IMG/VR virus record: IMGVR_UViG_2671180556_000001
Location: 1 to 5,243 of that record
Direction: 5' to 3' (one strand)
Origin: a virus
Taxonomy: Duplodnaviria > Heunggongvirae > Uroviricota > Caudoviricetes
Length of the DNA: 5,243 bases
Positions 1,854-5,227 of the stretch are shown in pieces. The notes beneath the pieces were generated by a model, which was not told the origin of the DNA, did not search any database, and worked only from the letters and a program-made list of their open reading frames with translations. The position numbers and the translations under genes were made by a program. The number at the start of each line of letters is the position of its first letter. The stretch's first letter is position 1.

Positions 1854-2576
1854 ATGAACGAGCTGATAAATAGCAACGTCATCAAAATGACCAGCATTGA
1901 AATCTCTGAGCTTACAGGTAAGCGTCATGACAATGTGAAACGTACTATCGAAATGCTGGCTAAAAATGGTGTTATCCGACATCCTCAAATTGAGGATTGT
2001 GGAAGAATCAATGGGTTAGGCTTAAATCAAAGTTTTCGTGTGTATGTATTCGAAGGCGAACAAGGTAAGCGAGACAGCATTATTGTCGTTGCCCAGTTGT
2101 CGCCGGAATTCACCGCTCGTCTTGTTGACCGTTGGCGAGAGCTTGAAGACGCTGCGGTTAATATCCCCAAAACTCTACCAGAAGCGTTGCGCCTTGCTGC
2201 TGATCTTGCTGAGCAGAAAATGCAACTGGAAAACCAGCTCGCAATTGCCGCACCTAAAGTTGAGTTTGCCGATCGCGTTGGCGAGGCCAGTGGAATTTTG
2301 ATTGGAAACTATGCAAAGGTTGTTGGTATTGGTCCAAACAAACTGTTTGCGTGGATGCGCGAACACAAAATCCTTATTGCTTCAGGTTCCCGGCGCAATG
2401 TGCCAATGCAGGAATATATGGATCGCGGCTATTTCACAGTGAAAGAAACAGCGGTCAATACAAATCACGGAATACAGATATCGTTCACCACAAAAATCAC
2501 CGGGCGTGGTCAACAGTGGCTGACCAGAAAGCTGCTCGATAACGGAATGCTGAAAGTAACAGGGGAGGCTGCTTAA
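1854..2576 (+). CDS. Phage antirepressor-family protein (N-terminal Rha regulatory domain, C-terminal KilAC/Ant domain)
   Basis: The N-terminus carries the Rha-family motif ([22 protein letters not shown]) and the C-terminal half resembles antirepressor KilA-C domains ([14 protein letters not shown]...). GAGAGGA at 1840-1846 sits 7 nt before the ATG at 1854, whereas the track's ATG at 1848 is only 1 nt from it, so 1854 is preferred. Stop is TAA at 2574-2576. Confidence 0.8.
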
Positions 2577-3181
2577 TGGCTAAACCAGCGCGAAGGAAAT
2601 GCAAAATATGCAAGGAATGGTTTCACCCGGCATTCTCAAATCAGTGGTGGTGCTGCCCGGAACACGGAACTCAATTAGCACTCGAACGACGAAGTAAAGA
2701 ACGCGAAAAAGCGGAAAAAGCAGCAGAGAAGAAACGACGACGAGAGGAGCAGAAACAGAAAGATAAACTGAAGATTCGAAAACTCGCCTTAAAGCCCCGC
2801 AGTTACTGGATTAAACAAGCCCAACAAGCCGTAAACGCCTTCGTCAGAGAAAGAGACCGCGACTTACCATGTATCTCGTGCGGAACGCTCACGTCTGCTC
2901 AGTGGGATGCCGGACATTACCGGACAACTGCTGCGGCACCTCAACTCCGATTTGATGAACGCAATATTCACAAGCAATGCGTGGTGTGCAACCAGCACAA
3001 AAGCGGAAATCTCGTTCCGTATCGCGTCGAACTGATTAACCGCATCGGGCAGGAAGCAGTAGACGAAATCGAATCAAACCATAACCGCCATCGCTGGACT
3101 GCCGAAGAGTGCAAGACCATCAAGGCGGAGTATCAACAGAAACTTAAAAAACTGCGAAATAGCAGAAGTGAGGCTGCATGA
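2576..3181 (+). CDS. ninG: NinG (Rap) recombination protein, a Cys-rich structure-specific endonuclease family
   Basis: 201-aa product with Cys clusters ([10 protein letters not shown]...WCCPEHG; CISCG...[11 protein letters not shown]) and a basic Lys/Arg-rich linker, matching lambda NinG in size and features. The start overlaps the previous stop (TAATG) and is preceded by AGGGGAGG. Confidence 0.8.
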
Positions 3182-3849
3182 ATATCTACGAAAGAATTGA
3201 TGGCAGCAAATACCGAAATATTTGGGTAGTTGGCGATCTGCACGGATGCTACACGAACCTGATGAACAAACTGGATACGATAGGATTCGACAACAAAAAA
3301 GACCTGCTCATCTCGGTTGGCGATTTGGTTGATCGCGGTACAGAGAACGTCGAATGTCTGGAATTAATCACATTCCCCTGGTTCAGAGCTGTACGTGGAA
3401 ACCATGAGCAAATGATGATTGATGGCTTATCAGAGCGTGGAAACGTTAATCACTGGCTGCTTAATGGCGGTGGCTGGTTCTTCAATCTCGATTACGACAA
3501 AGAGATTCTGGCTAAAGCTCTTGCCCATAAAGCAGAAGAACTTCCGTTAATCATCGAACTGGTGAGCAAAGATAAAAAATATGTCATTTGCCACGCCGAT
3601 TATCCTTGTAACGAATACGAATTTGGAAAGCCAGTTGATCCTCTGCAGGTAATCTGGAACCGCGAACGAATCGGCAACTCACAAGACGGGATCGTGAAAG
3701 AAATTAAAGGCGCGGACACGTTCATCTTTGGTCATACGCCAGCAGTGAAACCACTCAAATTTGCCAACCAGATGTATATCGATACCGGCGCAGTGTTCTG
3801 CGGAAACCTCACATTGATTCAGGTACAGGGAGAAGGCGCGTGGGCATAA
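3178..3849 (+). CDS. Serine/threonine protein phosphatase (lambda phosphatase-like metallophosphoesterase)
   Basis: Metallophosphatase signature motifs are visible: GDLHG, GDLVDRG and GNHE. The N-terminal sequence ([35 protein letters not shown]) is close to lambda protein phosphatase as I recall it. The ATG overlaps the ninG stop (ATGA). Confidence 0.9.
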
Positions 3850-4328
3850 GAGAACTAAACCTCACCAAAGAACAGCACGAGTGGCTGAATGGCTGGCTTG
3901 AACTGTGGGGCGCATGGGTTTATTCAGGTCGTCTGGAAAAGCGCATGAGCAGCGTAATAGCGAAGTTCATGGAGAGCGTAGAGCCGGGAAGAGTTATGAC
4001 AAGGCCAATGTGTAATGATGATGATGGAATGTTGATTTCTCAGGTCGTCGATTCCGTCATGTACATTGACAAGAAAGCCTTCGGCATCCTCCTCAGCTAC
4101 TACGCTCATGGTTCTTCCAGGCACGCCATTGCATCTTACTATCATCGCGTCGCAAGACCTCGCAAGATGTTATGCCGGGGCGGCGGGCGCATTCAAAAAC
4201 CATCGCTCGCAACCTGTCGACGGGAAGTTGACGAAATCCTTAATGCCTCGTTGTTTATGATTTACCCGGTTCTGGATAGTGCGTTTAAAAACCGGAAACG
4301 TGTAGAGAAAATTAAACATGTAGCATAG
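3840..4328 (+). CDS. Q: Late-gene antitermination protein Q (non-lambda Q family, phage 82/21/Stx-phage type)
   Basis: The product carries the N-terminal LWGAWV motif that I recall from the small Q antiterminator family, and the gene sits directly upstream of a candidate late promoter. GGGAGAAGG at 3828-3836 precedes a GTG start at 3840, overlapping the phosphatase 3' end by 10 nt. The start is uncertain; the next in-frame ATG is at 3945. Confidence 0.7.
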
Positions 4329-4330
4329 AA

Positions 4331-4373
4331 CGTGTTGACATCATTGAGCAAATGAGCAACACTATTGGCATAA
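4331..4373 (+). promoter_or_regulatory. Candidate Q-dependent late promoter (pR'-like) and Q-engagement region
   Basis: A consensus -35 hexamer TTGACA lies at 4335-4340, just after the Q stop. I could not place a convincing -10 hexamer at 16-18 bp spacing (TATTGG at 4363-4368 and TAAGCT at 4371-4376 are at non-canonical spacing). The call rests on position plus the -35 match. Confidence 0.35.
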
Positions 4374-4418
4374 GCTGCCGTTAGTGACTCTTAAGTTGCA
4401 ACGGTGGCTTTTTTATTT
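4374..4418 (+). terminator. Candidate tR'-like intrinsic terminator
   Basis: 9-bp stem GCTGCCGTT (4374-4382) / AACGGTGGC (4400-4408) including two G-U pairs, a large 17-nt loop, then TTTTTTATTT (4409-4418). Confidence 0.45.
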
Positions 4419-4493
4419 GGGTCAGTCGTATAAAGGTCATTACGGAAGGCTGTTAACCTTCTTATCGTGGTTCGAGTCCACGCTGTCCCGCCA
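4419..4493 (+). tRNA. tRNA-Asn(GUU)-like gene, 75 nt including encoded CCA
   Basis: Manual cloverleaf: acceptor GGGTCAG/CTGTCCC (one T-T mismatch at pair 4-69), U8, D arm GTAT-AAAGGTCA-TTAC with G18/G19, perfect anticodon stem GAAGG/CCTTC with loop CTGTTAA (anticodon GTT), T arm CGTGG-TTCGAGT-CCACG, discriminator G, CCA. The anticodon loop and T loop resemble E. coli tRNA-Asn as I recall it. Confidence 0.55.
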
Positions 4494-4498
4494 AACAT

Positions 4499-4574
4499 GC
4501 TGGTTTAGCTCCAATGGTAGAGCAACTGACTTGTAATCATCAGGTCGCCAGTTCGATTCCGGTAGCCGGCACCA
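4499..4574 (+). tRNA. tRNA-Thr(UGU)-like gene with imperfect stems, 76 nt including CCA; possibly divergent or a pseudo-tRNA
   Basis: Acceptor GCTGGTT/AGCCGGC (7 pairs, two G-U), U8, canonical D arm GCTC-CAATGGTA-GAGC, anticodon loop CTTGTAA (anticodon TGT), T loop TTCGATT, discriminator A, CCA. The anticodon stem (ACTGA/TCATC) has only 3 Watson-Crick pairs and the T stem (GCCAG/CCGGT) has one A-C mismatch. Confidence 0.5.
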
Positions 4575-4577
4575 TAT

Positions 4578-4652
4578 GCGGGTACCGTATAATGGCTATT
4601 ACCTCAGCCTTCCAGGCTGATGATGCGGGTTCGATTCCCGCTACCCGCTCCA
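4578..4652 (+). tRNA. tRNA-Gly(UCC), glyT-like, 75 nt including CCA
   Basis: Perfect 7-bp acceptor GCGGGTA/TACCCGC, D arm GTAT-AATGGCTA-TTAC, perfect anticodon stem TCAGC/GCTGA with loop CTTCCAG (anticodon TCC), perfect T arm GCGGG-TTCGATT-CCCGC, discriminator T, CCA. The sequence is nearly identical to enterobacterial tRNA-Gly2 (glyT) as I recall it. Confidence 0.8.
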
Positions 4653-4665
4653 GATTTATTATCAG

Positions 4666-4688
4666 GCTCGCTTCGGCGGGCTTTTTTT
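4666..4688 (+). terminator. Rho-independent terminator after the tRNA cluster
   Basis: 6-bp stem GCTCGC (4666-4671) / GCGGGC (4676-4681) with one G-U pair and a TTCG tetraloop, followed by seven T (4682-4688). Confidence 0.6.
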
Positions 4689-4740
4689 GTATCTGCGTTA
4701 CACCATTAACTAATAAATCGAGTGCTTATCAGGAGGCTAT

Positions 4741-4965
4741 GTGAAAAAGCTGATGGTGACGATTGGTCCGTTCGAAACAGAAGTTAGTTTTCGTGTCGTT
4801 CAGGGGGAGAGTGTACTTGTTGAAGATGTATTTCATGGAAAATCAACAGGTCCTTATGTAAAAGAATATTTTGTCGACGCCACGGATGAAAATATTGAGG
4901 TGGTGTACGATTCCGTCAATCACCCTAATTTGATCATTAAGGCAAAATTGAAACCACTTTATTGA
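4741..4965 (+). CDS. Hypothetical small protein (74 aa), unknown function, in the cargo position downstream of the late promoter
   Basis: ORF with AGGAGG at 4731-4736 and a GTG start at 4741 (short 4-nt spacer); stop TGA at 4963-4965. I recognise no motif in the product. Confidence 0.5.
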   Translation: MKKLMVTIGPFETEVSFRVVQGESVLVEDVFHGKSTGPYVKEYFVDATDENIEVVYDSVNHPNLIIKAKLKPLY

Positions 4966-5017: not shown

Positions 5018-5227
5018 ATGTTTGTTGCTGAAGGGGTAATGGAAGATAAGGACAACAAAGGATGTGTTAAAGGTTGGGCTGTGGTAAGAAACTCGCCATG
5101 GCATCTTGTTGGGGTTTTTGCGACAGAGGAAGACGCGGAAATGGAAGCAAGAAAGACGGGAGATGAGTACGAGGTTCACTATGGCTCGCATCGAACAGGA
5201 AGTGATGATTTTGTCTGGGGGGAGTAA
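5018..5227 (+). CDS. Hypothetical small acidic protein (69 aa), unknown function
   Basis: Strong Shine-Dalgarno AAGGAG 7 nt upstream of the ATG at 5018; stop TAA at 5225-5227. The C-terminus is acidic (EEDAEMEARKTGDEYE). I recognise no confident family. Confidence 0.6.
   Translation: MFVAEGVMEDKDNKGCVKGWAVVRNSPWHLVGVFATEEDAEMEARKTGDEYEVHYGSHRTGSDDFVWGE

Follow-up and report, generated by a model that had tools for sequence, protein, structure and literature searches.

A recombinant phage tRNA-Thr(UGU) gene with a recurrent two-base change in its anticodon stem

Organization of the locus

The window analyzed here, a stretch of 5,243 bp, is identified by its gene sequences as the nin/late-control region of a lambdoid prophage. 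Pfam matches revealed genes for a Dam methylase (93-647), two antirepressor-like proteins (1102-1779 and 1848-2576), NinG (2576-3181), and a Ser/Thr phosphatase (3178-3849), followed on the plus strand by a gene for a Q antiterminator of the phage 21 type (3840-4328; Phage_antitermQ, 85.6 bits), which is annotated as Q in phage JLK-2012 and, at the homologous place, in phage 21. Rfam matches at 850-1048 (c4-a1b1, 50.6 bits; isrK, 76.6 bits; C4 antisense RNA, 75.1 bits) lie directly upstream of the antirepressor-like ORF at 1102-1779 with its ORF6N and P22_AR_C domains, and the matches and this ORF can be read together as a C4-ant control module of the P1/P7 type, situated in a lambdoid nin region.

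Downstream of Q, the sequence aligns almost identically with OL657228, an annotated record of phage 21, by which the late promoter pR' region is placed at 4335-4418 on the plus strand. It comprises the -35 element TTGACA (4335-4340), the Q-binding element ATTGAGCAAATGAGCA (4343-4358), a transcription start near 4370, and tR' as terminator (about 4372-4418). All coordinates of pR', the Q-binding element, and tR' were transferred by alignment from the phage 21 record, and the promoter assignment draws on this homology; a simple consensus scan of the window called neither pR' nor tR'. The region is followed on the same strand by genes for tRNA-Asn(GUU) (4419-4493), tRNA-Thr(UGU) (4499-4574), and tRNA-Gly(UCC) (4578-4652), and 3' of the cluster by an intrinsic-terminator-like hairpin with a T run (4664-4690, plus strand). 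By homology, all three tRNAs would belong to a Q-antiterminated late transcript.

Positions 4300-4697 of the window are 100% identical to Escherichia phage JLK-2012, where all three tRNAs are annotated. From 4698 onward JLK-2012 departs from the window and carries the TerB-like genes tciA/tciB at this place. The window itself has two small ORFs downstream of the tRNA cluster (4741-4965, 74 aa; 5018-5227, 69 aa), neither with a Pfam match, and E. coli 2013C-4830 harbors two small ORFs for hypothetical proteins at this position, then TerB.

The tRNA-Asn gene was called by ARAGORN (Rfam, 55.3 bits) and is identical in phage 21, including a T-T mismatch in its acceptor stem, which had been pointed out in the initial annotation of this DNA and is indeed present as U4·U69. 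Compared with K-12 asnT (GCGGA/UCCGU), its anticodon arm GAAGG/CCUUC is without the CNG motifs and without the U39 of the host tRNA, position 39 being C; these lost features are the determinants reported for cleavage of tRNA-Asn by P2 Old and PARIS AriB. The tRNA-Gly gene, also called by ARAGORN (Rfam, 55.4 bits), derives from glyT according to its alignment to the K-12 gene, from which it differs by the compensatory pair C6U/G66A, by U8C, through which the near-universal U8 is lost, and by A38G in the anticodon loop, which could pair with C32. Related loci show further variants of tRNA-Gly (G39U in L056, L064, and L128; G53C in L069 and L126; C62U in L056), so that this gene looks less constrained than tRNA-Thr.

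Structure of the tRNA-Thr gene

A Thr(UGU)-like tRNA had been proposed at 4499-4574, and our analysis confirmed it at exactly these positions. The gene is 76 nt long, encodes the CCA at its 3' end, and matches the Rfam model RF00005 over its full length; the covariance-model scoring with Infernal that the initial annotation had recommended gave 49.0 bits (cmscan, E=1.5e-8), which is 20 bits over the curated gathering score of 29 bits. It is annotated as tRNA-Thr in the GenBank record of JLK-2012 and by PGAP in E. coli 2013C-4830, in the latter case without a pseudogene flag. ARAGORN with default settings called the Asn and Gly neighbours and missed tRNA-Thr, which was called with relaxed thresholds.

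The layout of the tRNA is GCUGGUU-UA-GCUC-CAAUGGUA-GAGC-A-ACUGA-CUUGUAA-UCAUC-AGGUC-GCCAG-UUCGAUU-CCGGU-AGCCGGC-ACCA. Its acceptor stem (GCUGGUU/AGCCGGC) is paired at seven of seven positions, two of them wobbles (U3·G70 and U6·G67), and the D stem at all four. In the anticodon stem (ACUGA/UCAUC), A27·C43 and C28·U42 are mismatched, so that three of five Watson-Crick pairs are left to carry the loop CUUGUAA with the UGU anticodon and A37. The T stem (GCCAG/CCGGU) is paired at four of five positions, with G49·U65 and the mismatch A52·C62, and bears the T loop UUCGAUU. The pairs 27-43, 28-42, and 52-62 were marked as non-standard by cmscan, in agreement with the earlier description of an anticodon stem reduced to three of five pairs and of an A-C mismatch in the T stem. 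The acceptor stem, D arm, and T loop had been regarded as canonical; this needs refining for the acceptor stem with its two wobbles and for the D loop, where C14 stands instead of A14 and A15 faces C48. Among the conserved tertiary nucleotides, the tRNA has U8, G18G19, and U33 as well as TTCGATT, with C at position 14 and A/C at 15/48. The C14 is shared with the experimentally active tRNA of phage 21.

The T stem had been described as weakened. The same A52·C62 is, however, found in thrU of E. coli K-12, and each of the 26 thrU-derived alleles that we examined has it too. By this comparison the mismatch is native to a functional host tRNA and no sign of decay; it is thus neither damage nor informative on whether the gene is decaying. 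The identity elements of E. coli ThrRS are reportedly G1-C72, C2-G71, G35, and U36. All of them are found in tRNA-Thr, and they are invariant or nearly so among the 26 alleles.

Folding of the isolated anticodon hairpin gave +1.1 kcal/mol for tRNA-Thr versus -2.4 kcal/mol for thrU. Minimum free energy folding of the unmodified sequence with ViennaRNA returned no cloverleaf for tRNA-Thr, nor for the genuine host thrU, and preferred a helix of positions 29-35 with 43-49 in both K-12 thrU (L003:389-464) and the window tRNA-Thr. Since the cloverleaf of a genuine tRNA is missed as well, single-sequence folding cannot judge these tRNAs; folding z-scores were weak for all tRNAs in this test. A fully paired re-fold, raised at the outset as a possible oversight, does not exist. 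The only alternative, which can be read off the sequence, is a slipped register of 28-31 with 42-45, a helix of 4 bp (C28-G45, U29-A44, G30-C43, A31-U42) with a 10-nt loop. As a functional form it was rejected because it is specific to the U42/C43 (TC) allele described below, loses one pair in alleles with C at both positions (CC), and would displace the anticodon.

Hybrid origin of the gene

Alignments divided the gene into two parts of different descent. Nucleotides 1-26 (4499-4524, plus strand) match the tRNA-Thr of phage 21, Sf6, and P22-like phages without a difference, and nucleotides 27-76 (4525-4574, plus strand), which come from a prophage-borne thrU copy, equal E. coli K-12 thrU except for G42U, U43C, A49G, and U68C. 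On this sequence evidence tRNA-Thr is a recombinant of a phage-21-family tRNA-Thr and a thrU copy. The crossover falls within GGTAGAGCA (4516-4524), 9 nt that are common to both parents. The tRNA-Thr of phage 21 is also the allele present in 101 of the 119 IMG/VR loci found with a 5'-half probe. At positions 14, 15, and 48 (window 4512-4513 and 4546), the Levitt pair of the hybrid is a mismatched and uncompensated A15·C48, the corresponding pairs of the parents being A15-U48 in phage 21 and G15-C48 in thrU.

Copies of thrU are carried in prophages within a widespread cassette, 'Thr-TAT-Gly', whose Gly gene is glyT-like, as in E. coli STEC367, E. coli WL164, and phage SerU-LTIIb; donor-type cassettes of this kind are L131, L132, and L133. 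The arrangement of the host tufB operon was considered as direct donor and rejected: thrU and glyT are split there by tyrU and spacers, while all phage cassettes have the 3-nt TAT, so that the immediate donor was another phage cassette and not the chromosome.

Intermediate forms were also identified. L077 (1359-1434) is the unmutated recombinant with the exact thrU 3' part, and L009 already carries TC and G49 but still has U68. The window type adds U68C, its sole change after L009, by which G5·U68 becomes G5-C68. The Gly allele of L077 and its downstream DNA differ from the window locus, which implies at least two independent crossovers within the tRNA-Thr gene, in the GGTAGAGCA segment. Along these steps and their relatives, the Rfam score amounts to 73.8 bits for thrU, 63.6 for TC on the thrU background, 62.8 for CC, 61.5 for phage 21, 58.6 for the unmutated chimera, and 49.0 for the window, so that each step has its cost but every score stays well over the threshold. 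In lambdoid mosaicism, as this locus shows, tRNA genes themselves act as recombination modules. We found no published description of the hybrid origin of tRNA-Thr or of the recurrent 42-43 allele in host-derived phage thrU copies; the hybrid origin, like the match to P2 Old presented below, lay beyond what the initial annotation could have seen.

Distribution and constraint of the two-base allele

Compared with thrU, the TC allele at positions 42-43 (4540-4541, plus strand) unpairs C28·U42 and A27·C43 and turns the CNG motif of the 3' strand from CAG into CAU. Exhaustive IMG/VR scans of thrU-type anticodon arms revealed 30 loci with a base other than G at position 42, all of them with C at 43 (28 TC, 2 CC), and a further copy of the CC type, L164 (CCG at 42-44), was obtained from a cassette-junction scan. 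The same exhaustive scans yielded no locus with G42 and an altered position 43, and an IMG/VR scan with positions 27-28 left free yielded no compensating change at these two. Scanning of metagenomes added six TC loci, plus one unrelated soil tRNA with G42A alone. In total, about 34 loci from phages and metagenomes carry the TC/CC allele. The 5' halves joined to it are of at least five kinds (thrU-identical, C16, C16/C20, the phage 21 chimera, and U3/U15/C16), and its flanks represent about 13 contexts, among them arrays that have other tRNAs upstream and Arg tRNAs downstream. Among species genomes the allele occurred in one of 185,579, on a contig of E. albertii that also holds the phage cassette. 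Judging from this distribution, the 42-43 allele is derived and not native to any host. Since the same GT-to-TC double change is not likely to have arisen repeatedly, the TC loci probably go back to a single mutational event and were spread by recombination instead of arising independently. We also considered that UCAUC might be a recombination artefact from a donor tRNA with GA at 27-28; this was rejected, as the scan with positions 27-28 left free found only the unrelated L260 (GUUGA/UCAAC) and species genomes gave UCAUC only in the E. albertii phage-cassette contig.

Comparison of homologous loci for compensatory changes, likewise suggested in the initial annotation, gave a divided answer: the acceptor stem does show compensation, U68C included, but in the phage scans 27-43 and 28-42 are never compensated. 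All acceptor-stem pairs (100%) are kept across the 26 thrU-derived alleles, and compensatory series occur at 5-68 (AU/GU/GC) and 6-67 (CG/UG/UA); in 11 of the alleles, 27-43 and 28-42 are unpaired together. Other changes on TC alleles are mostly located at the variable loop positions 16, 20, and 59 or preserve pairing or wobbling, and disruptive singletons are no commoner on them than on thrU-identical phage copies. Among 13 IMG/VR and two metagenome loci the window-type sequence does not vary, even though their Q/pR' and downstream modules differ, and the full Asn-Thr-Gly cassette was present in 13 of 5,426 complete E. coli genomes. Among the matches listed, thrU-identical copies outnumber TC/CC copies in prophages. 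Such a pattern runs contrary to random drift. The window type contrasts with L164 (IMG/VR 643348551_000008), a CC-type copy with G10A, G19A, C13U/G22A, A44G, and A49G, which probably is a genuinely decaying gene.

Relation to tRNA-cleaving nucleases

Phage tRNAs have long been explained by codon usage and since 2023-2025 are seen as counter-defence against tRNA-cutting immune nucleases. P2 Old, a Toprim nuclease, is the effector of classic P2-lambda interference, which aborts lambdoid infection; it kills by cutting host tRNA-ThrU after C28 (28/29) and C40 (40/41), and both cuts fall in paired pseudo-palindromic CNG motifs at 28-30 and 40-42 (PMC12445682). In the same study, phage tRNA-Thr(UGU) genes, including that of phage 21, rescued cells from P2 Old, while overexpression of host thrU gave no protection. 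The resistance determinant was the anticodon arm, in which an alteration of CNG and a shortened stem (loss of 27-43) are needed jointly and neither suffices alone; the resistant tRNAs tested there change 30/40 or 28/42 as base pairs (PMC12445682). Among the variants named in the main text of PMC12445682, the TC allele is absent.

In the window tRNA-Thr, the UGU anticodon with A37, by which ACA is decoded in place of thrU, is present. The stem is shortened by A27·C43 as a result of U43C, and 28-42 is also lost, which leaves 3 bp. The alteration of CNG is found on one strand only: with the loss of C28-G42, CAG becomes CAU, and the 5' CUG motif is retained together with C28 and C40, the Old cut sites. 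For PARIS AriB, which cuts tRNA-Thr(UGU) at 40/41 and which phages escape by changes at U39/A41 (PMC12409363), escape by the known determinants was examined and rejected, since U36AAUC/A41 is intact in the window tRNA-Thr as in host thrU, and such an escape is not predicted; phage 21 tRNA-Thr has G39/G41.

Interpretation and alternative explanations

The explanation that we prefer, and to which we give an even chance of being right, is that tRNA-Thr is a working, late-expressed, and nuclease-resistant replacement of thrU. The gene arose by intragenic recombination that joined nucleotides 1-26 of the phage 21 family to nucleotides 27-76 of a prophage thrU copy. Its transcription would start at the Q-dependent late promoter and take in tRNA-Asn and tRNA-Gly as well, and the tRNA would be excised from the late transcript. 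By unpairing 28-42 and 27-43, G42U and U43C destroy one of the two paired CNG motifs; two neighbouring substitutions in an arm that otherwise equals thrU thus bring about both published factors of P2 Old resistance. With both features in one allele, the phage would supply a cleavage-resistant decoder of ACA, and late protein synthesis could go on when host thrU is destroyed. The gene itself, its surroundings, its hybrid descent, and the recurrent and non-random occurrence of the allele are shown by our analyses, while expression, charging, and resistance to Old or related nucleases are what we infer from the sequence. Among the options originally listed for this gene, that of a tRNA depending on non-canonical pairs is the one favoured by the evidence. 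Some features speak against our explanation. An A/U-rich anticodon stem of 3 bp is predicted to be energetically marginal and could impair decoding. C14, A15·C48, two acceptor wobbles, and a score below the ARAGORN default are present, and the Old-cut cytosines C28 and C40 are kept along with the 5' CUG. Moreover, since thrU-identical prophage copies are commoner among the matches listed, escape from Old cannot be the sole reason for carriage, and the supply of ACA decoding must matter too.

Codon supply may even be the whole explanation, although we consider this unlikely: an extra tRNA-Thr(UGU) would serve ACA-rich late genes, and the 42-43 mismatches would be tolerated, nearly neutral, and hitch-hiking with a mobile cassette. 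The predominance of copies identical to host thrU among the matches listed fits dosage over escape, the TC alleles may all stem from one event, and in SfI the share of ACA is 17.3% in the phage versus 7.1% in the host, supplementation having been proposed for the homologous Asn-Thr pair (PMC3636060, which also cites the ileX work). However, a neutral passenger leaves unexplained why both pairs are always broken jointly and why a second allele (CC) affects the same two positions. No other stem pair has a comparably spread break, the acceptor stem is kept paired by compensation, and the two affected positions are exactly those published as determinants for Old. A decaying pseudo-tRNA, the first of the original options, would mean that recombination and two stem mutations inactivated a redundant gene that is now drifting. 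The miss by default ARAGORN, the drop of the Rfam score from 73.8 bits in thrU to 49.0, the predicted instability of the anticodon hairpin, C14 and A15·C48, the many further hits in the decayed-looking CC allele L164, and the scattered damaging variants G39U and G53C of the neighbouring Gly gene would all agree with this. Against it stand the invariance of the window type in 13 IMG/VR and two metagenome loci with mosaic flanks, the pair-restoring nature of U68C as the only change after L009, the accumulation of TC-allele changes mostly at loop positions 16, 20, and 59 or in wobble-preserving form, a score still 20 bits above the Rfam threshold, and the C14-bearing 5' half of phage 21, which belongs to an experimentally active tRNA. 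Random uncompensated stem substitutions, named beforehand as the mark of a pseudogene, were not seen in the homologues, one of which, L164, does look decayed; the break is confined to 27-43 and 28-42, recurs as the same change on many backgrounds, never appears singly in the phage scans, and comes without excess damage and with a fully paired acceptor stem. We thus regard decay of the window gene as quite improbable.

A non-decoding role is, in our view, highly unlikely. The RNA would then lure an anticodon-arm nuclease as a decoy or inhibit it by competition, or the loosened 27-43 region would alter decoding, for example toward broader ACN reading. Mutations of 27-43 reportedly affect wobble in other tRNAs, which would favour altered decoding. 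For a decoy, the AriB study raises inhibition of the nuclease through competition by overexpressed viral tRNAs (PMC12409363), and the intact UAAUC/A could still bind AriB. However, a resistant tRNA left endogenous thrU unprotected from P2 Old, which argues against competition (PMC12445682), and all ThrRS identity elements are kept along with the CCA end, needless for a pure decoy. No direct evidence favours a non-decoding role, and for the processing signal that had also been suggested we found nothing in support.

Returning to a nuclease-resistant replacement of thrU, we propose more generally, as a tentative reading just short of an even chance, that a minimal two-base 'unzipping' allele (G42U/U43C or C/C) was fixed and spread in prophage thrU copies, by which the tRNA that Old-type Toprim nucleases prefer as substrate became a resistant replacement, and that its arm was shuffled by intragenic crossovers of lambdoid phages into other tRNA-Thr genes, the window gene being one of these hybrids. 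If this is true, it would represent the shortest route of mutation in nature by which a nuclease-sensitive host tRNA becomes a resistant tRNA of phages, and the allele would mark past pressure by Old or PARIS-like systems on temperate phages. Prophages offer a natural contrast between the thrU-identical, sensitive form and a form two adjacent anticodon-arm bases apart at the published P2 Old determinants, and the TC allele is a directly testable candidate for a minimal resistance allele in classic P2-lambda interference. For annotators, a low-scoring phage tRNA with a 'broken' anticodon stem that is missed by default ARAGORN should not automatically be called a pseudogene.

Comparison with known systems

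The gene was already annotated as a tRNA, and its most likely kind, a phage tRNA-Thr evading an anticodon-stem nuclease, was described in 2025. Its closest counterpart is 'tRNA-Thr21' of phage 21 (Govande et al. 2025, PMC12445682), which is also found in Sf6, SfI, BTP1, and other P22-like phages. Both genes lie right after Q-pR'-tR' and tRNA-Asn and are identical in nucleotides 1-26 and in the anticodon, while nucleotides 27-76 are of other origin, with the arm GUCGC/GCGAA in phage 21 versus ACUGA/UCAUC in the window and with a different variable loop, T arm, and 3' acceptor strand. The phage 21 tRNA has a shortened stem of its own (G27·A43), is without CNG motifs, and was experimentally protective against P2 Old. 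It loses one anticodon-stem pair, whereas the window tRNA-Thr loses two and keeps C28, C40, and the 5' CUG.

With E. coli thrU and its identical 'Thr-TAT-Gly' copies, the window gene shares nucleotides 27-76 apart from four positions, A52·C62 included. The anticodon stem of thrU, the preferred substrate of Old, comprises 5 bp, and its CUG/CAG motifs are paired; the window gene differs by G42U/U43C, A49G, U68C, and the foreign 5' half. Coliphage tRNA-Thr6 and the tRNA-Thr(UGU) variants of T5 and T4 are phage UGU tRNAs that bypass Old or PARIS by anticodon-stem changes. From its sequence, the window tRNA-Thr appears to share the two-factor logic of the tRNA-Thr6 class, a CNG change plus the loss of 27-43, but realizes it differently: tRNA-Thr6 combines the pair swap G30C/C40G with U43A and the T5 variants are altered at 39/41 around the AriB site, while in the window only the 3' strand is changed, at 42-43.

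Other lambdoid (Stx) prophages also carry tRNA clusters downstream of pR', e.g., ileZ-argN-argO, as phage-supplied tRNAs for late genes. These clusters have other tRNA identities, and their classic explanation is the supply of rare-codon tRNAs and not nuclease escape; their position in the leader of the late operon is the same as that of the cluster described here.
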